Source: an uncultured Thermus sp.
GTDB taxonomy: Bacteria > Deinococcota > Deinococci > Deinococcales > Thermaceae
Assembly: GCA_947085095.1 (NCBI GenBank)
Contig: CAMTVD010000024.1
Location: 1 to 42,640 of the forward strand
Length of the DNA: 42,640 bases
Reading direction: 5' to 3'
Shown here one piece after another: positions 16,400 through 27,294 of the stretch (position 1 is the stretch's first letter; each line of letters starts with the position of its first letter). Made by a program: the position numbers and the translations under genes. The notes below the pieces were generated by a model, which saw only the letters and a list, made by a program, of their open reading frames with translations, was not told the DNA's origin and made no database searches.

Positions 16400-16572
16400 G
16401 GCTTGCGGAAGAGGAGGTAGGCCAAAAGGAGCACCAGGCCCCAGGCCCCGAAGAGGTAGAGGTAGACCGGGGGAAGCCCCAAGGGCCCCAAGGGGGAGAG
16501 GGGGAAGAGGGCCAGGGGCAGAAAAAAGAGGAAAAGGGCCAGGAGGAAGAGGGCGAAGGCTTTTTCCTTCAT
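16396..16572 (-). CDS. 58-aa two-helix membrane peptide coupled to the SLC5 kinase (not in the ORF track)
   Basis: MKEKAFALFLLALFLFFLPLALFPLSPLGPLGLPPVYLYLFGAWGLVLLLAYLLFRKP; ATGA overlaps at both ends. Confidence 0.8.
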   Translation of the reverse strand: MKEKAFALFLLALFLFFLPLALFPLSPLGPLGLPPVYLYLFGAWGLVLLLAYLLFRKP

Positions 16573-18317
16573 CGGAGTTGGAAGCGGGCTGCGGTGCTCT
16601 CCTGGATCTCCAGGATGGCCCGGAACCCCTCGAGGGCCAGCTGTCTTTCCCGGGGGGACAAGGCGCTCCAGAGAACCCTGTTGCCGATCTCCTTTCCCTG
16701 GCGGAAGGCGGCGAGCTGGTGGCCTAGGCGCAGGTGGAAGAAGAAGCGGTAGGCCTCGGCCAGGCGCTCCGCCCCTTCCTGGCTCAGGGTGCCCCCGGCT
16801 AGGGCGGCCATAAGGCGCTCCACCGTTCCCTTGGCCAGACTGCCCGCCATGAGGGCGTAAAGCCGGGCCAGGGCCACGATGGGAGCCAGGGCGGCCCGCT
16901 TCAGGTCCACGAACCCCTCCTCCGTGCGCACCCGGCCAAAAAGGCCCAAGGGGGGGCGGAAGGCCAGGGCGCTTTGCGCCAGGTGGTAGAGGAAGACCCC
17001 CTTGCGGCTCCTTTCCAGGATGGCCTCCTCCAAGGGCTTCAGGGAAAGCGTCCCGGCCACCCCCCGGAAGTCAAAGAAGATCTGGGTGTCCAGGAGGGCC
17101 TGGGGCTCGGGGGCGTCCATCCACTTCCTGAAGGTGGCCACCCAGTCCCTTAGGGGCATGCGCCAGCGAGTGGCCATATACCCCCCTTTGCACTCGGGGA
17201 TGCCCGCCCGGATCAGCCCCTGGACCACCCTTTCCCCCAGGGCCTGGAAATACTCCTCGTGCCCCCCTTCCGCCAGGACCAGGGCGTTGTCCTGGTCGGT
17301 GAGCAGGGCCTGCTCCCGCCGCCCCTCCGAGCCAAAGACCAGAAGGCTGTAGGGCACGGGAGGGTTTCCCAAGGCCGCCTCGGCCTCCCTCACCAGGCGG
17401 CGGAGGAGGGCGTCGTTCAGGGAGGCCACCACCCGCCCGATCTCCAGCCCCCCCAGGCCCCGGGCGAAGAGGGCCTCCACCAGGTGGGCCACCTCGAGGC
17501 CGTACCGCTCCAGCTCCAGCCGCTCTATCCGCCTTAGGAGGAGGAGGGGGCTTTGCGCCTGGTGCAGGACCAGATCCGTGTGGGTCACCACCCCCAGGAC
17601 CTTTTCCCCCTGGGTGAGGGGCAGGTGGTGGATGCCCCGCTCCACCATGGCCGCCACCGCCTCATAGATGGGGGTCTCCGCGGGGAGGGCGAAGAGGGGG
17701 GTGCTCATGACCCGGGCCACGGGGGTGGCGGGGGAAAGCCCCTCCGCCAGGACCCGGTTCCTCAGGTCCCGGTCGGTGAGGATGCCCAGGGGCTCCCCTT
17801 CCACCAGGAGGCTGGAGATCCCCTCCTCCCGCATCCTCCGGGCGGCCTCCTCCACCGTAGCCGTGGGAGGGATGAAGGCCGGGGGGCGCCTTATGAGCCT
17901 CCCCACCGGGGCGAAAAGGGAGAGGTCCGGGGCTTCCCTTAGCCGCACCCGGCTTGCCAGGCCTTGCCCAAAAAAGCGGGCGGCCTCGGGAAAGGCCAGG
18001 AGCTTCTGGAAACCTTCTTTAGGAAAGACCAGGATACGGACCGGGGTCCTGGCCACCACGGAGAAAGCAGGGGGCTCTCCGGAAAGAAGGGAGGGAAAGC
18101 CAAAAAACTCCCCGGGTCCCAGGCTCCCCACCTCCTCCTCCCCGTCCCGTAGGGCCACCTCCCCCTCCAGCACCAGGTAGAGGCTTTCCGCCGGCTCCCC
18201 CCCTTGCTCCAGGATATGGGCCCCTTGGGGATGGGCCTCCTCCTGGGCCTGACGGAGGAGGGCTTCCCGCTCCGCTTCAGGAAGGGCGTTCAGGGGCGGA
18301 ATGATTCTGGGGTCCAT
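16569..18317 (-). CDS. cNMP-binding + CBS pair + DUF294 nucleotidyltransferase
   Basis: cNMP (LGPGEFFG), CBS (GILTDRDLR, IHHLP), Pol-beta-like FGSEGRREQALLTDQDN, IFFDFR, DLKR. Confidence 0.9.
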   Translation of the reverse strand: MDPRIIPPLNALPEAEREALLRQAQEEAHPQGAHILEQGGEPAESLYLVLEGEVALRDGEEEVGSLGPGEFFGFPSLLSGEPPAFSVVARTPVRILVFPKEGFQKLLAFPEAARFFGQGLASRVRLREAPDLSLFAPVGRLIRRPPAFIPPTATVEEAARRMREEGISSLLVEGEPLGILTDRDLRNRVLAEGLSPATPVARVMSTPLFALPAETPIYEAVAAMVERGIHHLPLTQGEKVLGVVTHTDLVLHQAQSPLLLLRRIERLELERYGLEVAHLVEALFARGLGGLEIGRVVASLNDALLRRLVREAEAALGNPPVPYSLLVFGSEGRREQALLTDQDNALVLAEGGHEEYFQALGERVVQGLIRAGIPECKGGYMATRWRMPLRDWVATFRKWMDAPEPQALLDTQIFFDFRGVAGTLSLKPLEEAILERSRKGVFLYHLAQSALAFRPPLGLFGRVRTEEGFVDLKRAALAPIVALARLYALMAGSLAKGTVERLMAALAGGTLSQEGAERLAEAYRFFFHLRLGHQLAAFRQGKEIGNRVLWSALSPRERQLALEGFRAILEIQESTAARFQLR

Positions 18318-18636
18318 GGCTGGGGGTAAGCCAGGCGATCAGGGGGACGATGTAGTGCAGGGCCACCTGGGCCTGAAACAGGACCACGAGGCCCACCCCC
18401 AAGACGAAGGCCGGGGGCAGGAGCACAAAGAGCCGCACCACGCGCCCCCATCCAGGTGGGGGTAAGGGCCAGATGCGGTGGTAGAGGAGGCCAAGCCAAA
18501 GGCCCAGGGCCGCTCCCAAGGCGATCTGGAAGAGAATCCCGGGGGTGGGGAAGGGGAAGCCCAGGAGGTAGTGGCCCAGGAGGTAAAAGGCGAAGAGGGC
18601 GCTAAGGCTTCCCAGGTAAAACCGCAAAAGCTTCAT
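18277..18636 (-). CDS. Hypothetical membrane protein
   Basis: 119 aa, 3-4 hydrophobic segments, GGAGG SD, overlaps the downstream gene. Confidence 0.75.
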   Translation of the reverse strand: MKLLRFYLGSLSALFAFYLLGHYLLGFPFPTPGILFQIALGAALGLWLGLLYHRIWPLPPPGWGRVVRLFVLLPPAFVLGVGLVVLFQAQVALHYIVPLIAWLTPSHGPQNHSAPERPS

Positions 18637-18698: not shown

Positions 18699-20369
18699 CT
18701 AGTGCTCGCTTGCGGCTCCGCTTCCCTTGGGCACGCGGATCTCGTCCACCAGCTTCTGGATTTCCGGGGGCGGGGGCGGGGTGGCCCGGGAGACCAGGTA
18801 GGCCACGATGACGTTGAGGAGCATGCCGATGGTGCCGATCCCCTCCGCCGTGATGCCAAAGACGAAGTTGGGCCAGCCCAGGTACTTGGTGCCCACGATG
18901 TAGCTGGCGGTGAAGACCAGGCCCACGATCATTCCCGCCACCGCTCCCTGCATGTTCATCCTCCGGTCAAAGATGCCCAGGAGGATGGCGGGGAAGAAGG
19001 TGCTGGCGGCAAGCCCGAAGGCGAAGGCCACCAGCTGGGCGATGAAGGCCGGGGGGTTGATGCCGAAGGGGGCGGCCAGGATCACCACCAGGGCGATGAT
19101 CACCCGGGCGATGGTGAGCTTGGTGGCCTCCGAGGCTCTGGGATTGATCATCCGGGTATAGAGGTCGTGGGAGATGGCGCTGGCCATCACGATGAGGAGG
19201 CCCGCGGCCGTGGAGAGGGCGGCGGCCAGACCTCCTGCCGCCACCAGGCCCACGATGAAGGGGGCCAGTTTGGCCACCTCGGGGGTGGAGAGGACGATGA
19301 TGTCCCGGTCAATGGTGACCTCGTTGACCTCCTTCTTGCCGCTCATCTGCAGGATGCCGTCCCCGTTCTTGTCGTCAAACTTGAGGAGGCCCGTCTTCTC
19401 CCACTTGGCCACCCAGTCGATCTGGCGCACCTCCTCCAGGGGCTTGTTGGCCAGGGTGTTGAGGAGGTTGTACTTGGAGAAGACGGCCACGGCGGGGGCG
19501 GTGGTGTAGAGAAGGCCGATGAAGAGGAGGGCCCAGCCGGCGCTCCAGCGGGCGTCCGAGGCCCTGGGCACGGTGTAGAAGCGGATGATCACGTGGGGCA
19601 GGCCGGCGGTGCCCACCATGAGGGTGAGGGTGATGAGGAAGACGTTGAGGGCGGAGAGGTTCTGGAAGGGGGCCACGTATTCCGTGAAGCCCAGCTCCAC
19701 CTGAAGCTGGCTCAGGCGCACGGCGAAGTCGCTGAAGGTGAAGGAAAGGGGCGGAAGAGGGTTGCCCGTGAGGAGGTTGGAGAGGGCGATGCCCATGATC
19801 AGGTAGGCGGAGATGAGCACGGTGTACTGGGCCACCTGGGTCCAGGTGATCCCCTTCATGCCGCCGATCACCGCGATGAAGGCGGTGACCAAGACGGCCG
19901 CCCAGACCCCCGTGGCCACGTCCACCCCCAGGTAGCGGGAGAGGACGATGCCCACGCCCCTGAGCTGGGGAACCATGTAGACGAAGGAGACGAAAAGGGC
20001 GCTGATAATGGCCACCACCCGGGCGATGTTGGAGTAGTAGCGGTCCCCCACGAACTCGGGCACCGTGTACTTGCCGTACTTGCGCAGGTAGGGGGCGAGG
20101 AGGAGGGCTAAAAGGACGTACCCGCCGGTCCAGCCCATGAGGTAGACGGCCCCATCGTAGCCCAGGAAGGAGATGAGGCCCGCCATGGAGATGAAGCTGG
20201 CCCCCGACATCCAGTCGGCGGCGGTGGCGGCCCCGTTGGCCACTGGGGGCACGCCCCGGCCCGCCACGTAGAAGCCCGCCGTCTCCCGCACCCGGGCCCA
20301 GTAGCCGATGCCCAAGTAAAGGGCGAAGCTAAGAATCACAATGGTCCAAGTCCAGGCTTCAACGCTCAC
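18699..20369 (-). CDS. actP: Cation/acetate (monocarboxylate) symporter, SSS family
   Basis: FYVAGR, AADWMSGASF, GGMKGITWTQ, GTAGLPHV, AAALSTAAGL; acs neighbourhood. Confidence 0.88.
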   Translation of the reverse strand: MSVEAWTWTIVILSFALYLGIGYWARVRETAGFYVAGRGVPPVANGAATAADWMSGASFISMAGLISFLGYDGAVYLMGWTGGYVLLALLLAPYLRKYGKYTVPEFVGDRYYSNIARVVAIISALFVSFVYMVPQLRGVGIVLSRYLGVDVATGVWAAVLVTAFIAVIGGMKGITWTQVAQYTVLISAYLIMGIALSNLLTGNPLPPLSFTFSDFAVRLSQLQVELGFTEYVAPFQNLSALNVFLITLTLMVGTAGLPHVIIRFYTVPRASDARWSAGWALLFIGLLYTTAPAVAVFSKYNLLNTLANKPLEEVRQIDWVAKWEKTGLLKFDDKNGDGILQMSGKKEVNEVTIDRDIIVLSTPEVAKLAPFIVGLVAAGGLAAALSTAAGLLIVMASAISHDLYTRMINPRASEATKLTIARVIIALVVILAAPFGINPPAFIAQLVAFAFGLAASTFFPAILLGIFDRRMNMQGAVAGMIVGLVFTASYIVGTKYLGWPNFVFGITAEGIGTIGMLLNVIVAYLVSRATPPPPPEIQKLVDEIRVPKGSGAASEH

Positions 20370-20380
20370 GGTCTACCCCC

Positions 20381-20638
20381 TTAGTCCTCAAACCCGTAGG
20401 CCCGGTCCAAGGCTTGCATCTTGGCAGCGTAGACGAAGATCAGGATGATGAAGACCCAGATGGCCCCCTGTTGGGCGATCCAGAAGCCCAAAGGCGGCCC
20501 GCCGAAAATCCGGATGCTGTTGAGGGCTGGGGCCAGCAGGATGCCGAGCCCGTAGGCCACCACCGCCCAGACCACGAGCAGGTTCCGGATCAGGGCCAGG
20601 TTCTTCTGCCAGTACTCCGCCAGCTTTGCTCCGTCCAT
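20381..20638 (-). CDS. Small symporter-associated membrane subunit (DUF4212-like)
   Basis: YWQKNLALI...GPPLGFWIAQQG; ATG 20638 with GGAGGGAG SD. Confidence 0.85.
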   Translation of the reverse strand: MDGAKLAEYWQKNLALIRNLLVVWAVVAYGLGILLAPALNSIRIFGGPPLGFWIAQQGAIWVFIILIFVYAAKMQALDRAYGFED

Positions 20639-20714
20639 AAGCTCCCTCCCTCGCCAAACCGGAAAGGCCGTTAGGATGCGTGGGTTTGGCCTTGCTCCCG
20701 GTTTGGTGGCGGTC

Positions 20715-20743
20715 ATCTTAGAGGTCCGTGAGGAGGGTGTCAA
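20715..20743 (-). promoter_or_regulatory. sigmaA promoter of the actP operon
   Basis: TTGACA-17 nt-TAAGAT on the minus strand. Confidence 0.85.
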
Positions 20744-20829
20744 GAAACGGGGGTTTTTTCGCTATGCGCTAAAGGGGCGGTTTCCCTTAGGAGAAGCAGG
20801 ACCCCATCGGGGCTTCCCGGCGGAGTGGG

Positions 20830-22710
20830 CTACTCCTCGAGGGTGGACAGGTCCCCCGGGTCCTTCCCCAGCTCCTGGGCCTTGAGGAGCCGCCTCAAGA
20901 TTTTGCCGGAGCGGGTCTTGGGGAGTTTGTCCAGGAAGACCACTTCCCCCGGGGTGGCGATGGCCCCAAGCTCCCGGCGCACGTGCTGGACGATGCTTTC
21001 CTTGAGTTCCTCGGAAGGAGTGTGGCCCAGGCGCAGGACCACGAAGGCCTTGATGGCCTCCCCCTTGACGGGGTCGGGCACCCCGATCACCGCCGCCTCG
21101 GCCACCGCGGGATGGGAGACCAGGGCGCTTTCCACGTCGGCGGTGCCGATGCGGTGCCCGGCCACGTTTAAGACGTCATCCGCCCGCCCCAGGACGCTGA
21201 AGTACCCCTCCTCGTCCTGGCTGGCCACGTCCCCGGCCACGTAGACCCCAGGGACCTCCCGCCAGTACTGGAGGTAGCGGTCGTGGTTCCCCCAGACGGT
21301 GCGCATCATGTGGGGGAAGGGGCGCTTGAGGACGAGGAGCCCCCCCTGCCCTGGGGGCACGGGCCTCCCCCCCTCGTCCACCACCCCCGCCTCCACCCCG
21401 GGGAGGGGTACCCCCGTATACCCGGGCTTGGCGGGGAGGGTGAGGGGGGTGCCTAGGGTGGGGCCTCCCAGCTCCGTCTGCCACCAGTTGTCGGCCACGA
21501 AGCCCCGCCTGCCCCCCTCCGCCAGGTGCTCGTAGGCCCAGCGCAGGGCCTCGGGGTTCAGGGGCTCCCCGGCCACGGCGATGAGGCGCAAGGAGGAGAG
21601 GTCGTGCTTCTTGGGCCACTCGGGGCCGAACTTCATGAACATGCGCACCGCCGTGGGGGCGGTGAACATCACGTCCACCCGGTAGCGCTCCACCACCTGC
21701 CAGAAGGCCCCGGGGTCGGGGTGGTCGGGGGCCCCTTCCCGGAGGAGGCTGGTGATCCCTTCCAGGAGGGGGGCGTAGACCATGTAGGAATGCCCCACGA
21801 TCCAGCCGATGTCGCTGGTGGCGAAGAAGAGGTCGTCGTCCTTCACGTCAAAAAAGGTGCGCAGGTGGTAGGTGGTGCCCACCATGTACCCCCCGTGCAC
21901 GTGGACCACCCCCTTGGGCTTGCCGGTGGAGCCCAAGGTGTAGAGGATGAAGAGGGGGTGCTCCGCCTCCACCATCTCCGCCCGGGCCTCGGGGGGGTGG
22001 CTAAAGAGGAGCTCTTCAAAATCGTGGTGCCCCGGGGGAAGCTCCGCCTTGCCCAGGCGCTGGAACCAGACCACCTTGAGGGGGAGGTCCCGGATGGCCT
22101 CCTCGGCGATGGAGCGGAGGTCCACCACCCTGCCCCGCCTAAAGCCCACGTCCCCGGCGATGAGGAGTTTGGCCCCGGCGTCCAGGATGCGCTCCCTTAA
22201 GGCTCCCACCCCGAGGCCCGCGTAGACCACGCTGTGGATGGCTCCCAGGTAGGCGGTGGCCAGCATGGCCAGGATGCCCTCGAGGGTGAGGGGCATGTAG
22301 ATGACCACCCGGTCGCCCTTGCCCACCCCCAGGGCCCTAAGCCCCGTGGCCAGGCGGCGCACCCGGTCCAGGAGTTCCCCGTAGGTGAGCTTGGCCTCCT
22401 TCCCCTCCTCGGATAAGTAGAGGAGGGCCACCTTGTTCCTCAGGCCCCGCTCCACGTTCCGCTCCAGGGCGTTGTAGACGGCGTTGGTGGTGCCCCCAAG
22501 GAACCACCGGTGCTCGGGGAGGTCCCACTCCAGGACCTTTTCAAAGGGCTTCTCCCAGTGGAAGCGCTTGGCCCACGCTCCCCAGAAGCCCTCGGGGTCT
22601 TTGAGGCTCCTCTCGTACTCTGCCTGGAAATCCTGCAGGTTGGCCTGCTTCCTAAGGGGTTCCGGTGCCCAGAGCTTTTCCTCAACCTTGAGAATCTTTT
22701 CCACCGCCAT
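20830..22710 (-). CDS. acs: Acetyl/propionyl-CoA synthetase paralogue
   Basis: YT(L)[27 protein letters not shown]. Confidence 0.9.
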   Translation of the reverse strand: MAVEKILKVEEKLWAPEPLRKQANLQDFQAEYERSLKDPEGFWGAWAKRFHWEKPFEKVLEWDLPEHRWFLGGTTNAVYNALERNVERGLRNKVALLYLSEEGKEAKLTYGELLDRVRRLATGLRALGVGKGDRVVIYMPLTLEGILAMLATAYLGAIHSVVYAGLGVGALRERILDAGAKLLIAGDVGFRRGRVVDLRSIAEEAIRDLPLKVVWFQRLGKAELPPGHHDFEELLFSHPPEARAEMVEAEHPLFILYTLGSTGKPKGVVHVHGGYMVGTTYHLRTFFDVKDDDLFFATSDIGWIVGHSYMVYAPLLEGITSLLREGAPDHPDPGAFWQVVERYRVDVMFTAPTAVRMFMKFGPEWPKKHDLSSLRLIAVAGEPLNPEALRWAYEHLAEGGRRGFVADNWWQTELGGPTLGTPLTLPAKPGYTGVPLPGVEAGVVDEGGRPVPPGQGGLLVLKRPFPHMMRTVWGNHDRYLQYWREVPGVYVAGDVASQDEEGYFSVLGRADDVLNVAGHRIGTADVESALVSHPAVAEAAVIGVPDPVKGEAIKAFVVLRLGHTPSEELKESIVQHVRRELGAIATPGEVVFLDKLPKTRSGKILRRLLKAQELGKDPGDLSTLEE

Positions 22711-25219
22711 ACTCTTCCTCCAGTCCCGAGGTGTCTCCCGGGTCCATGCCCAACAGCTCCGCCTTGAGAAGCCGCCTCAGGATTTTGCCGCTCCGGGTAC
22801 GGGGAAGGCTTTCCGCGAAGAAGACCTGCACGGGTCCCAATGGCCCCAGGTGGCGAAGGAGGTGGGCCTTGAGCTTCTCCGCCAGGAGGGGCTTGAGCTC
22901 CTCGGGGAGGTCCTTGTTCCGGGGCACCACGAAAAGGGCGAGGATCTCCTCCTCCCCCGGTACCCCAATGGCGGCGGCCTCGGCCACCTGGGGGTGGGTG
23001 AGGAGGGCCGCCTCCACCTCGGCGGTGCCCAGCCTGGCCTCACCCAGCTTGATGATCTCCTCGGAGCGGCCCAGGATGCGGAAGTAGCCCTCCTCGTCCA
23101 TGGTGGCCAGGTCTCCCGTCCAGTAGAGCCCGCTCTGCCAGGGGTTTTCCCCGCCCAGGAGACCCACCATATGGGCGGGGCCAGCCTTGAGAAGGACCAG
23201 ATGGCCCTTCTCCCCGGGGGGGAGGACCCGGCCCCCCCCGTCCACCACCCGGGCCTCCACCCCGGGGAGGGGCACCCCCACGAAGCCCGGCTTGGCGGGG
23301 AGGGGGAGGGGGGTGGCCAGGGCCGGGGCGCCCAGCTCCGTCTGCCACCAGTTGTCCAGGGGCCAGGCCAGGTTCTCCTTGGTCCAGCGCCAGACCTCGG
23401 GGGCCAGGGCCTCGCCTACGCTCCCCACCAGCCTGAGCCCCGTGGGCCTTGCCTCCCCGTGGCGGCGGAGGGTCCTCAGGATCGTGGGGGAGGTGAGGAG
23501 AACCCCCACCCCCAGGCGGTTCAGCCGCTCGTAGAAGGCGCTGGGGCTTGGGTGGTCGGGCCGGTCCTCCATAAGGAGGCTCGTCCCCCCCAGGAGGAGG
23601 GGGGCGTAGAGGCCAAAGGAGTGGCCCACCACCCAGTAAAGGTCGGCGGTGGTGTGGAAGACCTCCCCCGGTTTGAGGTCAAAAAGGTAGCGCAGGGCCC
23701 AGGCCACCCCCACCATGTACCCCCCGTGGCCGTGGACCACTCCCTTGGGGGTTCCCGTGGAGCCCGAGGTGTAGAGGACGAAGAGGGGGTGGTCCGAGGG
23801 CAGGGGAAGGGCCTCGGCGGGCCTGCTCTCCGTGGCCTTTTCCAGAAACTCCGTGCCCCCTCGAGGGTGCCAGAGGACGGGGAGGTCCAGGCCCGAGAGG
23901 GCGGCCTCCACCGTGGCCCTGGTGGGCACGAACCGCCCCCTTCGGTAGTACCCGTCGGCGGCGATGAGGAGCCTGGCCTTGCTCTGCAAAAGGCGCTGGC
24001 GCAGGGCCTCGGGGCCTAGGCCCATGGGCAGGGCCACGTGCACCGCCCCAATGCGGGCCGAGGCCAGGAGGCTTATGGCCGCCTCCACTCCCGTGGGCAG
24101 GTAGAGGGCCACCCGGTCCCCAGGCCCCACCCCCAGGCCCCGCAAAAGCCCCGCCAGCCGGGAGGAGAGGTCCCAAAGCTCCCGGTAGGTCCACTTCTCC
24201 AGGTTCCCCTCCCCATCCAGGGTGAGGAGGGCCACCTGCTGGGCCCTTTCCGGGAGGTGGCGTTCCAGGGCGTTCAGGGCGGCGTTGGTGAGGCCTCCCT
24301 GGAACCAGGCCCGCCTTTCCGGATCGTAGACCCTCTCCCAGGGCTTGGCCCAGAGGAGCTCTCGGGCGAAGTCTCCCCAGAACCCTTCCGGGTCCTCGAG
24401 GCTCTGCCGGTAGAGGGCAGGAAAGTCCTGGAGGTGGGCCTTTTCCAAGAGGGCTCTAGGGGGCTCCACCACCTCCACCTGGAGCCCCACCTCGGGGGGA
24501 GGGGAGAGGGGAGGGGGCTCGGATGGGGGTAGGTGGGCGGAGACCCGGGCCACCTCGGAAAGGGAGCGGGCCAGGCGGCTGAAGGCGAAGGGGAAGCGCC
24601 GGGCGGGGACCACCACCCCCAGGGCCCCCAGGACCTCCCCCTGGGGGCCAAAGAGGGGTGCGGCCAAGGCGGAAAGCCCCAGGGCGTACTCCTCCATCTC
24701 CACCGCCAGACCCGAGGCCCTGACCCGGGAAAGCTCCGCCTCGAGGGCCAGGGGATCGGTGAGGGTGTAGGGGGTTTTGGGGGAGAGGGGAGGAAGGGCC
24801 AGGACCCCGTGGGCCAGGAGGACCTTGCCCAGGGCCAGGGCGTGGGCCTCGGGGGGCAGGGTCTCCCCCAAAGGGTTAGGCTGGCCCTGCCGGCCCCGGG
24901 TCTTGAGCCTCACCCCCTCCGGGGTGAGGAGGGCCAGGTAGCACCGCTCCCGGGTGCGCAGGTAAAGCTCCTCCAGGGCCTCCTCCAGGAAGCCCTGGGC
25001 CTGAGGGACGGGCTTGGTGCGGGCCAGGGTGTACCTGCCCTCCCCTTTGACGGCGAACCCCTCCTCCACCAGGCTATTGAGGAGGGCATAGGCGGTGGAG
25101 AGGCTCTTGCCCAGAATCTGGGCCACCTCCTTCACCTCCACCCCCTCGGGGTGCTCCGCCAGGTAGGCCAGGATGCGCAAAGCCGCCTGGACTGTGGAAA
25201 GGCCCCTTCGCCTTGGCAT
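22682..25219 (-). CDS. IclR-family HTH/effector domain fused to an acyl-CoA-synthetase-like domain
   Basis: N-term STVQAALRIL...KSLSTAYALLNSL (IclR HTH), HALALGKVLLA, TPYTLTD, AAPLF; C-term YTSGSTGTPKG, WWQTE, PRTRSGK, all in one frame. Confidence 0.88.
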   Translation of the reverse strand: MPRRRGLSTVQAALRILAYLAEHPEGVEVKEVAQILGKSLSTAYALLNSLVEEGFAVKGEGRYTLARTKPVPQAQGFLEEALEELYLRTRERCYLALLTPEGVRLKTRGRQGQPNPLGETLPPEAHALALGKVLLAHGVLALPPLSPKTPYTLTDPLALEAELSRVRASGLAVEMEEYALGLSALAAPLFGPQGEVLGALGVVVPARRFPFAFSRLARSLSEVARVSAHLPPSEPPPLSPPPEVGLQVEVVEPPRALLEKAHLQDFPALYRQSLEDPEGFWGDFARELLWAKPWERVYDPERRAWFQGGLTNAALNALERHLPERAQQVALLTLDGEGNLEKWTYRELWDLSSRLAGLLRGLGVGPGDRVALYLPTGVEAAISLLASARIGAVHVALPMGLGPEALRQRLLQSKARLLIAADGYYRRGRFVPTRATVEAALSGLDLPVLWHPRGGTEFLEKATESRPAEALPLPSDHPLFVLYTSGSTGTPKGVVHGHGGYMVGVAWALRYLFDLKPGEVFHTTADLYWVVGHSFGLYAPLLLGGTSLLMEDRPDHPSPSAFYERLNRLGVGVLLTSPTILRTLRRHGEARPTGLRLVGSVGEALAPEVWRWTKENLAWPLDNWWQTELGAPALATPLPLPAKPGFVGVPLPGVEARVVDGGGRVLPPGEKGHLVLLKAGPAHMVGLLGGENPWQSGLYWTGDLATMDEEGYFRILGRSEEIIKLGEARLGTAEVEAALLTHPQVAEAAAIGVPGEEEILALFVVPRNKDLPEELKPLLAEKLKAHLLRHLGPLGPVQVFFAESLPRTRSGKILRRLLKAELLGMDPGDTSGLEEEYGGGKDSQG

Positions 25220-25227
25220 CTGGTCTC

Positions 25228-25257
25228 ATCTTCCCCAGGGGCTTTTCTCCCTGTCAA
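25228..25257 (-). promoter_or_regulatory. Putative promoter of iclR-acs (near-leaderless)
   Basis: TTGACA-18-GAAGAT, with the ATG 8 nt downstream; weak -10. Confidence 0.45.
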
Positions 25258-25298
25258 GAAAGGAGGGGTTTGCGAAATGGCGAAAAAGCCCTCTTTTC

Positions 25299-25327
25299 TT
25301 GACCCGGGCCCATCCCCCTCCTATCCT
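25299..25327 (+). promoter_or_regulatory. sigmaA promoter of acs
   Basis: TTGACC-17-TATCCT, then GGAGG SD and ATG 25348. Confidence 0.8.
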
Positions 25328-25347
25328 CAAAAGGCGAAGGAGGGAAC

Positions 25348-27294
25348 ATGGACCGGATTGAGGGCGTTCTCAAGGAGGAACGGGTCTTCTACCCCAGCGA
25401 GGCCTTCCGCAAGCAGGCCCACATCGGGAGCGAGGAGGAGTACCAGAGGCTTTACGAGGAAAGCCTGAAGGACCCCGAGGGCTTCTGGGGAAGGGTGGCC
25501 TCGGAGCTCCACTGGTTTACCCCCTGGCAGAAGGTCCTGGAGGGGGACCTGCCCCACCCCAAGTGGTTCGTGGGGGGCAGGACCAACCTCTCCTATAACG
25601 CCCTGGACCGCCACGTGGGCACCTGGCGCAGGAACAAGGCGGCCATCGTCTGGGAAGGGGAGCCGGGGGAGGAGAGGGTCCTCACCTACCATGACCTGTG
25701 GCGGGAGGTGCAGAAGTTCGCCAACGTCCTCAAGCGCCTGGGGGTGAAGAAGGGGGACAGGGTGACCATCTACCTCCCCATGATCCCCGAGGCGGCCATC
25801 GCCATGCTGGCCTGCACCCGCATCGGGGCCGTCCACTCCGTGGTCTTTGGGGGGTTTTCCGCAAGCGCCCTGGCGGACCGCATCAAGGACGCCGAGGCCA
25901 AGGTCCTCATCACCGCCGACGGGGGTTACCGCCGGGGGGGGATCGTCCCCCTCAAGCAGAACGCTGACGAGGCCCTGAGGGAGGCCCCAAGCGTGGAGCA
26001 CGTGGTGGTGGTGCGCCGCACCGGGGAGGAGGTGCCCATGACCCCGGGCCGCGACCACTGGTGGCACGAGCTCATGGAGGTGGTTTCCGACCGGGCGGAC
26101 CCGGAGCCCATGGAGGCGGAAGAGCCCCTCTTCATCCTCTACACCTCGGGCTCCACCGGCAAGCCCAAGGGCGTCCTCCACACCACGGGCGGCTACATGA
26201 CCTACGTCTACCTCACCACCAAGCTGGTCTTTGACCTCAAGGACGAGGACGTCTACTGGTGCACCGCCGACGTGGGCTGGATCACCGGCCACTCCTACGT
26301 GGTCTACGGCCCCCTCCTCAACGGGGCCACCACGGTGATGTACGAGGGGGCCCCCAACTGGCCCGATCCCGACCGCCTCTGGCAGATGGTGGACAAGTAC
26401 GGGGTGACCATCTTCTACACCGCCCCCACCGCCATCCGCTCCTTCATGAAGTGGGGGGAGAACTGGCCCTTAAAGCACCGCCTGGACACCCTCCGCCTCC
26501 TCGGTACCGTGGGGGAGCCCATCAACCCCGAGGCCTGGCTCTGGTACTACCAGGTGATCGGCAAGGGCCGGTGCCCCATCGTGGACACCTGGTGGCAGAC
26601 GGAGACCGGGGGCATCATGATCACCACCCTTCCCGGGGCCCATCCCATGAAGCCCGGGCATGCGGGCAAGCCCTTCTTCGGGGTGAAGCCGGAGATCCTG
26701 GACTCCGAGCACCGCCCCGTGGAGAGCCCCGACGAGGGCGGCCACCTCTGCATCACCCGTCCCTGGCCCAGCATGCTCCGCACCGTCTGGGGGGACCCCG
26801 AGCGCTTCCTCCAGCAGTACTTCAGCCAGCACCCGGGGGTCTACTTCACCGGGGACGGGGCCAGGCGGGACCAGGACGGCTACTACCTGATCCTGGGCCG
26901 GGTGGACAATGTCTTAAACGTGGCCGGGCACCGGCTGGGCACCATGGAGATTGAGTCCGCCCTGGTCTCCCACCCCGCGGTGGCGGAGGCGGCTGTGGTG
27001 GGGCGGCCCGACCCCATCAAGGGGGAGGCCATCGTGGCCTTCGTGACCCTGAAGGAGGGGAACCCTCCCTCGGAGGCCCTGAGGGACGAGCTCAAGGCCC
27101 ACGTGGCCAAGGTCATCGGCCCCATCGCCCGGCCGGACGAGGTGCGCTTCACCGAGGCCCTGCCCAAGACCCGCTCGGGGAAGATCATGCGCCGCCTCCT
27201 CCGGCAGATCGCCGCCGGGGAGCAGGAGATCAAGGGGGACACCTCCACCCTCGAGGACCGCTCCGTGGTGGAGCGGCTGAAGCAGGGCTCCTAA
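25348..27294 (+). CDS. acs: Acetyl-CoA synthetase (AMP-forming)
   Basis: [46 protein letters not shown]. Confidence 0.95.

Follow-up and report, generated by a model that had tools for sequence, protein, structure and literature searches.

An IclR regulator fused to an acetyl-CoA synthetase-like body in Thermus and its family: a putative one-component regulator of acetate genes

The fusion gene and its domains

The sequence analyzed here, called the window, is a stretch of 42,640 nucleotides from an uncultured Thermus sp. (contig CAMTVD010000024.1), with a G+C content of 65–70% across its length. Its minus strand carries a fusion gene, P0001, in which an IclR transcription factor and a body related to acetyl-CoA synthetase (Acs) are encoded in one frame. 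Two further acs genes flank it, acs2 on the same strand and the divergent acs1, and the operon of a sodium/solute symporter lies beyond acs2. The fusion gene is laid out as follows.

22682..25219, minus strand: fusion gene P0001, 845 residues, IclR module, linker, and Acs-like body in that order (single open reading frame; full-length orthologues)
25049..25186, minus strand: HTH_IclR winged helix-turn-helix (HTH), residues 12–57 (Pfam PF09339, 48.2 bits against a cut-off of 22)
24551..24976, minus strand: IclR_C effector-binding and oligomerization (tetramerization) domain, residues 82–223 (Pfam PF01614, 57.6 bits against a cut-off of 24)
24482..24541, minus strand: proline-rich flexible linker, residues 227–246 (predicted local confidence, pLDDT, below 50 in the AlphaFold2 model; variable among orthologues)
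22784..24418, minus strand: Acs-like body, residues 268–812, made of ACAS_N, AMP-binding N-domain, and AMP-binding_C (Pfam, NCBIfam, Foldseek)

A first-pass annotation, made from the DNA letters, had read the frame as an IclR HTH, an effector domain, a proline-rich linker, and an Acs-like body, and both the open reading frame and the Pfam matches agree with this reading. The two features of IclR family membership, the HTH (PF09339) and, after it, the effector domain (PF01614), are present. The IclR part, which comprises the first 226 residues, aligns over fusion residues 7–210 to positions 4–225 of 249 in the Thermotoga structure 1MKM (E 5.5e-16), and many of its positions are invariant among 48 Thermaceae fusions. 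The linker, which reads PPSEPPPLSPPPE at about residues 229–243, differs between orthologues in both length and sequence.

The remainder of the protein has the domain layout of Acs, namely ACAS_N (268–317), AMP-binding (324–677; 249 bits), and AMP-binding_C (734–812), and also the Acs fold: its best Foldseek match is 8RPL (E 8e-58; template modeling score normalized to the target 0.72), and 1PG4 and 2P2F are matched as well. The same annotation had spoken of an "entire acyl-CoA synthetase". As to layout and fold this is correct, but it is overstated, since the body falls below both NCBIfam cut-offs for Acs (480 bits against 657; 475.9 against 724.95) and has lost a glycine of motif A8. In an AlphaFold2 model built with 48 orthologues as input, the mean pLDDT is 81.6 and both modules are confident. 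The C-terminal domain of that model is closer to structures in the adenylation state (8RWJ, 5K8F, 5U29; root-mean-square deviation 5.9–6.3 Å) than to those in the thioester state (9.3–10.2 Å), a feature of the prediction to which no weight is given. Prediction of a complex between the IclR module (1–226) and the Acs body (247–845) gave scores on both sides of the 0.32 mark (0.23, 0.35, and 0.26) and favors neither outcome. In databases, about 50 clusters with this architecture are named "AMP-binding protein", "acetate--CoA ligase", or "transcriptional regulator, IclR family".

Distribution and authenticity of the fusion

The fused frame was searched for in 68 genomes of the Thermaceae (Thermus, Meiothermus, and relatives). 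It forms one unbroken match, from residues 1–5 through at least residue 830, in 51 of them. Partial matches occur in 13 others (G041, G061, G027, G001, G051, G032, G025, G033, G006, G057, G004, G055, and G067) and are due to contig ends, masked bases, frameshift-laden assemblies, or recombination. One genome, G008 (69% complete), is counted neither way, and the fusion is absent from three that are 99–100% complete (G011, G017, and G029). Marinithermus, which belongs to a neighboring family, also has the fusion.

The junction between the IclR and Acs parts is spanned with zero differences by X3 record 22 (24090–25400) and X4 record 26 (23801–25088), which come from other samples of the same study and are hence only partly independent. 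It is also crossed by a contig from an RNA library (X20 record 11, 24206–24607; 40 differences, no gaps), which is no proof of transcription. The first-pass annotation had supposed that the fusion may be common in Thermus, and had considered that reads or orthologues might reveal two separate genes. Unbroken orthologues and junction-spanning contigs from other samples both show a single frame and rule out two genes as well as an assembly artifact. The fusion gene is thus real, conserved, and near-universal in Thermus and its family.

A word-based database search with the IclR part only returned 51 long proteins, every one of which belongs to this fusion family. Similarly, in an exhaustive search of representatives of 1.84 billion proteins, the best 150 IclR matches included one fused cluster of Acs length (883 residues), which stands for these same fusions. 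No second, independent IclR–Acs fusion was found among those best 150 representatives, of which four clusters of 537–568 residues, with two to three matched IclR stretches each, were left unexamined; distant fusions of an HTH to a domain of the ANL (adenylate-forming) superfamily were not searched.

An unfused IclR paralogue of 285 residues, 43% identical to the IclR part of the fusion, is encoded in the fusion-less genome G017 (L058, G017:C122:4402-5256). It is located on a separate contig, where it adjoins a distant AMP-binding gene (26% to acs2).

Origin and motifs of the Acs-like body

A maximum-likelihood tree of 29 Acs bodies, taken from 53 sequences prepared, places those of the fusions in a 100/100 clade beside the acs2 of Thermaceae and far from acs1. 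Summed branch lengths amount to about 1.5 changes per site in the Thermus fusion, compared with about 0.2 in Thermus acs2. Tree position and branch lengths together indicate that the Acs-like body is a tandem duplicate of acs2 that has evolved faster after fusing. It is under purifying selection and shows no decay. When Thermus sequences were compared in seven pairs (Nei–Gojobori, rough at high GC), the ratio of non-synonymous to synonymous substitution rates (dN/dS) was 0.17–0.28 for the IclR part, 0.29–0.96 for the linker, 0.21–0.40 for the Acs N-domain, and 0.07–0.35 for the Acs C-domain; the values for the neighbors were 0.20–0.32 (acs2) and 0.13–0.21 (acs1).

Conservation of motifs was counted over the 48 Thermaceae fusions. 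The adenylation motifs that had been noted as intact are present in P0001 (YTSGSTG, 483–489; WWQTE, 624–628; TGD, 701–703; SGK, 810–812) and are kept throughout the family. In the P-loop, motif A3, residues T484, S485, G486, S487, G489, P491, and K492 are found in 48/48 sequences and T488 and G493 in 47/48, while position 490 varies (K in 34, T in eight, R in six). Equally invariant are R718, R729, WQTE, the GD of A7, and SGK, which includes the A10 lysine K812; W624 and T701 occur in 47 and 46 sequences, respectively. The tryptophan of the acetate pocket is kept, and K812 lies in the context PRTRSGKILRR in every fusion.

Other motifs have diverged. Relative to both neighboring Acs proteins, HSVV has become HVAL, D(V/I)GW has become DLYW, GR(A/V)D(D/N)V has become GRSEEI, and GHR has become EAR, exactly as the first-pass annotation had reported. 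Across the clade, the fixed changes with respect to Acs are HSVV to HV(A/L)(L/V/I) and FGGFS to P-GLG, together with a rewritten A8 hairpin, in which GRxDDVLNV(A/S)GHR is replaced by GR(S/T)(D/E)(D/E)(V/I)IKxG(E/D)xR.

23024..23071, minus strand: altered A8 motif GRSEEIIKLGEARLGT, residues 717–732 (residue-by-residue alignment to 2P20)

A8 has been defined as RX(D/K)X6G, and its glycine lines the 4′-phosphopantetheine tunnel in the thioester-forming conformation (PMC11255334). Alignment to 2P20 equates Glu727 of the fusion with Gly524 of Salmonella enterica Acs, Arg718 with Arg515, and Arg729 with Arg526, with no insertion or deletion between the two arginines. Position 727 is Glu in 41 fusions and Asp in seven, and the glycine that completes the A8 pattern is found there in none; the glycine one residue before it, G726, is present in 48/48. 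Replacement of Gly524 by Leu in S. enterica Acs reportedly abolishes the second half-reaction and leaves adenylation intact, a result that is given no weight here.

A second clade with a degenerate Acs body

A search of the phylum with the IclR part only covered 301 genomes, of which 193 gave some IclR match (the tally includes the unpublished genome G258, on which nothing rests). A fused frame in the uncultured Deinococcales genome G302 led to relatives that make up 11 database clusters of 879–902 residues, encoded in contigs of metagenome-assembled genomes (MAGs) titled "Deinococcales bacterium". These proteins share HVVIPAGLG, DLSW, and IKAGD with the fusions of Thermaceae, and all 11 have Asp at the position of Gly524, which makes the acidic A8 residue older than the split between the two clades. 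They retain WWQTE, SGD, and Arg515. However, the equivalent of Arg526 is Leu in 11/11, the P-loop has degenerated to (S)GSGDK(S/P)(K/R)G, and the A10 lysine is lost in 11/11, the residue after GG being T, S, V, N, or one other. The frames are intact, and the clusters are 71–90% identical to the search query.

Judging from these residues, the Acs body of the second clade is a conserved pseudoenzyme, which probably still binds an adenine nucleotide. Since its frame is intact and conserved in spite of the lost A10 lysine and P-loop, enzyme turnover is dispensable for the function of the fusion in at least one clade. The first-pass annotation had left a choice between a trigger enzyme and a one-component sensor, which would read acetate/ATP, acyl-AMP, or lysine acetylation, and a catalytically dead sister clade favors the sensor. 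In the neighborhood of the second-clade genes (L064, L065, L068), holB (DNA polymerase III delta′) is found upstream, and a convergent LuxR-type response regulator with a histidine kinase is found downstream.

Another kind of sensing could be envisaged, in which the body would report the CoA state of the cell, either by binding CoA or acetyl-CoA, or by passing the acetylation state of K812 on to the IclR module. The constant context of K812 in Thermaceae fits this idea, as does a sirtuin-type deacetylase encoded in the genome; moreover, acetylation of the A10 lysine is given as the standard Acs switch in PMC11255334. However, the second clade dispenses with this very lysine, and normal CoA binding is disfavored by the acidic residue of the pantetheine tunnel. 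There is also no clear Pat-type acetyltransferase in the genome, where the sole PF13549 match above cut-off lies in a 469-residue frame that was not examined further. We regard feedback of this type as decidedly improbable.

Natural recombinants

In two genomes, G001 (L036, G001:C1, a frame of 854 residues) and G005 (L035, G005:C3, a frame of 900 residues), the frame retains the IclR module and an initial portion of its own Acs body, beyond which acs2-type sequence takes over. In G001, 10 of the first 11 sixty-column windows show 87–100% identity to the fusion of a congener (71% in the remaining one, columns 300–360). The breakpoint precedes A4, the sequence beyond it is acs2-like (75–92%), and the frame ends before A10. 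In G005, the breakpoint comes after A4, and canonical GHR and SGK are present. Both recombinants have the canonical GHR at A8, and a separate acs2 is absent from the stretches fetched around them. They look like products of unequal crossover between tandem paralogues, and of two separate events, because the breakpoints differ.

The recombinants bear on the possibility that the protein is a bifunctional trigger enzyme of the PutA type, that is, a fully active ligase of acetate or short acyl groups to CoA. The fused IclR repressor would then respond to catalytic flux or to substrate occupancy, and the A8 change would only retune kinetics or substrate range. An acs2-type C-domain is evidently tolerated in G001 and G005, the adenylation motifs, the A10 lysine, G726, and Arg729 (Arg526) are invariant in Thermaceae, and the dN/dS of the body resembles that of acs2. 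Furthermore, in Marinithermus, G002, and G007, where no acs2 adjoins the fusion, the body might supply the activity. Against a working ligase stand the two failed Acs cut-offs, a fusion branch several times longer than that of acs2, the tunnel glycine that is never present among the 48 fusions, and a sister clade that keeps the fusion without catalytic lysine or P-loop; in addition, a bona fide acs1 always adjoins, which makes an extra enzyme unneeded. On this evidence, a trigger enzyme is unlikely, but less so than a sensor of CoA or acetylation.

Candidate DNA sites at three promoters

The first-pass annotation had proposed that the protein controls the flanking acs and transporter promoters and had pointed to two intervals, 25253–25303 and 20739–20775, as the places where it might bind. 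Both coincide with a repeated, conserved promoter cassette, as a local regulator of acs1, of its own operon, and of the transporter would need. The cassette consists of two extended −35 boxes, 41 nt apart, with an imperfect palindrome between them, which is a candidate for the palindromic or pseudo-palindromic type of operator that IclR regulators bind near their target genes.

25253..25303, no strand: divergent-promoter cassette GTCAAGAAA-N33-TTTCTTGAC, in the intergenic region of the fusion gene and acs1 (conserved in the loci)
25268..25289, no strand: candidate operator GTTTGCGAAATGGCGAAAAAGC, halfway from one −35 box to the other (conserved block; top genome-wide match of a position weight matrix, PWM, in whose training set it is included)
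25299..25327, plus strand: predicted acs1 promoter, TTGACC, 17 nt, TATCCT (both hexamers conserved in 30 loci)
25229..25257, minus strand: predicted fusion-gene promoter, TTGACA (25257–25252) and, about 18 nt on, a weak −10-like GAAGAT
20753..20774, minus strand: another copy of the operator candidate (CTTTAGCGCATAGCGAAAAAAC as read on this strand), ahead of the transporter operon (PWM rank 3 genome-wide, outside the training set)
20715..20747, minus strand: predicted transporter promoter, TTTC-TTGACA, 17 nt, TAAGAT

Three copies of the 9-mer TTTCTTGAC are found in the window, against 0.15 expected, and none of 100 shuffles reached three. The 2.08-Mb genome has six, half of which belong to the acs1, fusion, and transporter promoters as their extended −35 boxes. 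The cassette is present in 30/30 Thermus-type loci, with a gap between the 9-mers of 33 nt (26 loci), 34 nt (three), or 35 nt (one). Another 12 loci were taken from Marinithermus and from four other genera; their −35 boxes are 41 nt apart in ten cases, 43 in one, and 67 in one. The operator block reads TTTGGCAAATGGTGAAAAAC in most Thermus, compared with GTTTGCGAAATGGCGAAAAAGC in the window, and the clearest palindrome of this type, TTTTGCG-N5-CGCAAAA, is found at the transporter promoter of the Meiothermus-type genome G015. At the transporter promoter of the window, distance and orientation of the element equal those at the acs1 promoter, and with the PWM, trained on Thermus intergenic sites, this element ranks third genome-wide and is the only other match followed by TTTCTTGAC.

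As far as the Thermus-trained PWM can serve as a test, which is only in part, the element also follows the presence of the fusion. Among loci of other genera that bear the fusion, 7 of 11 score above the 95th percentile of the background (9.3), compared with 0 of 3 fusion-less loci (−3.1 to 8.5). The 41-nt cassette does not occur in the three fusion-less genomes, in which acs2 faces acs1 or acs1 is on its own.

Each candidate operator is centered about 55 nt upstream of the predicted start, clear of the core promoters, and for this reason activation by the bound protein would be somewhat more likely than repression. An invariant TTTC adjoins each −35 box. The mRNA of the fusion gene would be leaderless, or nearly so, because its ATG is only 8 nt after the −10-like GAAGAT.

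The co-occurrence of cassette and fusion also speaks to the possibility that the IclR module is vestigial or structural (for instance, serving oligomerization), so that the protein would be a third Acs isozyme and the cassette would belong to another regulator. Public names such as "AMP-binding protein" or "acetate--CoA ligase" would agree with this, and the assignment of the operator is indirect. However, the HTH and the effector domain both score above their Pfam cut-offs and align over their full length to a solved IclR structure, the dN/dS of this part is low, many of its positions are invariant, and genomes without the fusion also lack the cassette. A vestigial module is therefore very hard to credit.

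Three side observations concern the operator. In G007 (L033), two tandem operator-like elements stand between −35 boxes spaced 67 nt apart. In G039 (L002), a close relative with 89% protein identity, the central operator block (compare 25268–25289 of the window) is reversed between the same inverted 9-mers, and looks as if it had been flipped between inverted repeats. A site of the CRP/SdrP type was considered and rejected by eye, as the operator has a single GGTGA half-site and no partner at the right spacing.

Gene neighborhood

Apart from the fusion, the genes of the locus are the following.

25348..27294, plus strand: acs1 (P0003, 648 residues), bona fide acetate--CoA ligase (NCBIfam 1077 bits; equivalog 1019 bits against 725)
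20830..22710, minus strand: acs2 (P0002, 626 residues), canonical-looking Acs paralogue (NCBIfam 735 bits against a cut-off of 657)
18699..20743, minus strand: VC_2705-family sodium/solute symporter, small subunit (DUF4212/TIGR03647) and large subunit (P0004, TIGR03648) (family matches)
16569..18317, minus strand: gene for a cyclic nucleotide (cNMP)-binding/CBS/DUF294 nucleotidyltransferase, after the symporter (Pfam)

Divergent from the fusion gene, acs1 begins 128 nt away. The start of acs2 overlaps the end of the fusion gene by 29 nt, and the two are therefore probably in one operon. All 30 Thermus-type loci fetched share the order acs1, fusion, acs2, with acs1 divergent, as do the Meiothermus loci that were examined. 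The transporter comes immediately after the fusion in Marinithermus, G002, and G007, which have no adjacent acs2, and in the Meiothermus-type, fusion-less G017 (L038) and G029 (L039), acs2 directly faces acs1.

The first-pass annotation had called the flanking transporter actP. It is a sodium/solute symporter of the VC_2705 family (large subunit, TIGR03648, 783.6 bits) and scores far too low to pass the ActP models (156 bits; cut-off, 1099). The TTG start listed for the small subunit (20743) falls inside the predicted −35 box, so that the true start must be downstream of about 20715; the family match begins only at residue 43. The DUF294 gene may form, with acs and the VC_2705-type symporter, a wider acetate module. 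A 119-residue frame without family match (18277–18636, minus strand) overlaps the start of the DUF294 gene. In acs2 of the window, the A3 P-loop (about residue 259) differs from the Thermus orthologues P0056 and P0059 at a normally invariant serine, which is either a consensus error of the MAG or a real variant.

Proposed mechanism

Uncontrolled Acs drains ATP, hence the lysine-acetylation switch of other bacteria; to our knowledge, acetate sensing and Acs control are poorly known outside proteobacteria and firmicutes. For the fusion, we consider it on balance probable that the protein is a one-component regulator of acetate genes whose input domain derives from Acs and senses an adenylate-type state. 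According to this hypothesis, a tandem duplicate of acs2 was neofunctionalized and, once fused to an IclR regulator, became its signal-reading part. The regulator would bind, as dimer or tetramer, the imperfect palindrome that, by sequence, lies exactly midway between the −35 boxes of acs1 and of the fusion–acs2 operon, as well as the second copy at the same distance from the transporter promoter. The Acs-like body may still bind ATP or AMP together with a small carboxylate, since A3, A5, A7, A10, Arg718, and the pocket tryptophan are invariant, and the thioester-forming half-reaction may be impaired or altered, since the tunnel-lining A8 glycine is always Glu or Asp. From this it would follow that the likeliest signal is occupancy by acetate and ATP, held as acetyl-AMP or AMP. 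Such occupancy could fix the mobile C-terminal domain and thereby alter how the IclR part oligomerizes or binds DNA, in a manner comparable to that of biotinyl-AMP in BirA. The net effect would be to tie the genes of acetate uptake and activation to the availability of acetate and adenylates.

That bound acetyl-AMP is itself the effector, as the analogy with BirA would have it, is a possibility that we put forward only tentatively. A chemistry-based version of the hypothesis is similarly speculative. Here the body would carry out the first half-reaction only and trap acetyl-AMP behind a CoA tunnel plugged by a carboxylate, and the trapped adenylate would switch the IclR tetramer through a locked C-terminal domain, or else acetylate a lysine of the regulator itself (E. 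coli Acs is able to acetylate CheY). In this version, the Deinococcales clade would be a later stage, a pseudoenzyme that merely binds its ligand.

Several observations weigh against a regulator of acetate genes with an adenylate-sensing Acs domain. The recombinants G001 and G005, which carry GHR, show that the acidic A8 residue is dispensable for retention of the gene; G726 might hold the pantetheine tunnel open and thus permit thioester formation; and the fully kept adenylation motifs of Thermaceae are equally expected of a working enzyme. With regard to the promoters, 4 of the 11 non-Thermus fusion-bearing loci are at background by the Thermus PWM, all of them from the Meiothermus-type genus g5, in which four of five loci score 0.4–9.3; the fusion-less comparison consists of three genomes only, two of them close kin. 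The operator is tied to the fusion protein by position and co-occurrence, and another factor could bind there, while the TTTC beside the −35 boxes could belong to a larger tetramer site, which would favor repression. We infer DNA binding, ligand, and sign of regulation from sequence. Lastly, no acs or transporter gene was found within 6 kb of the second-clade fusions, so the acetate link is not universal.

Comparison with known systems

The whole family (Thermus, Meiothermus, and relatives) appears to control Acs through a duplicated Acs that serves as the ligand-reading domain of an IclR regulator. If this is true, the two clades would constitute a natural series from an active-looking to a dead sensor domain, complemented by two natural domain-swap recombinants; about sixty database clusters named "acetate--CoA ligase" or "AMP-binding protein" would need renaming; and a thermostable, acetate-responsive switch would become available for Thermus genetics and biosensing. 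No description of an IclR–Acs fusion was found in literature searches, which mostly surfaced titles and listings and not full texts, nor was a locus tag found there for the orthologue of T. thermophilus.

Each half of the protein has well-known relatives. The N-terminal 226 residues are a full member of the IclR family, as are T. maritima TM0065 (1MKM), E. coli IclR, and AllR (effector domains 2O99 and 1TF1), and E. coli IclR also shares the setting of acetate metabolism; the fusion differs by some 600 further residues. The rest of the protein resembles S. enterica Acs (1PG4, 2P2F) and AcsA of Chloroflexota (8RPK, 8RPL) in its three-domain layout and fold (31–37% identity), and keeps A3, A5, A7, A10, and the pocket tryptophan. 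Unlike them, it falls below the family cut-offs, shows the changes A8 Gly to Glu, His to Ala, HSVV to HVAL, and FGGFS to P-GLG, and has a regulator attached.

With respect to the combination, the nearest parallel is BirA of E. coli, which is at once the biotin protein ligase and the repressor of the bio operon, and in which the enzyme-bound acyl-adenylate is the co-effector for oligomerization and operator binding. Both proteins join an N-terminal winged HTH to an adenylate-forming module, but the co-effector role of an adenylate is only proposed for the fusion. Moreover, the module of BirA is a full enzyme resembling class II aminoacyl-tRNA synthetases, whereas that of the fusion is, according to Foldseek, an ANL/Acs body without homology to it. 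The second half-reaction of the fusion also looks altered, and its DNA-binding part is a complete IclR protein with its own effector domain. In PutA, NadR, and other trigger enzymes, as in the fusion, a DNA-binding domain and an enzyme of the controlled pathway share one polypeptide. However, those proteins are catalytically competent, whereas the fusion is a dedicated, diverged paralogue beside two ordinary Acs genes, with a catalytically dead sister clade. In MocR/GabR, where a GntR-type HTH precedes a domain of aminotransferase fold, a whole enzyme fold likewise acts as a one-component sensor that keeps cofactor and substrate binding and partial chemistry; DNA-binding family, enzyme fold, and ligand all differ from those of the fusion, and there is no sequence relationship. 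Regulator sensors derived from enzymes are thus already known from BirA, PutA, NadR, and MocR/GabR, and what would be new is an ANL-fold sensor on an IclR regulator. If the proposal is right, the ANL fold would be added to the few enzyme folds that have been turned into one-component sensors, and, should trapped acetyl-AMP prove to be the signal, this would be the first ANL-superfamily domain to act as the input module of a transcription factor.

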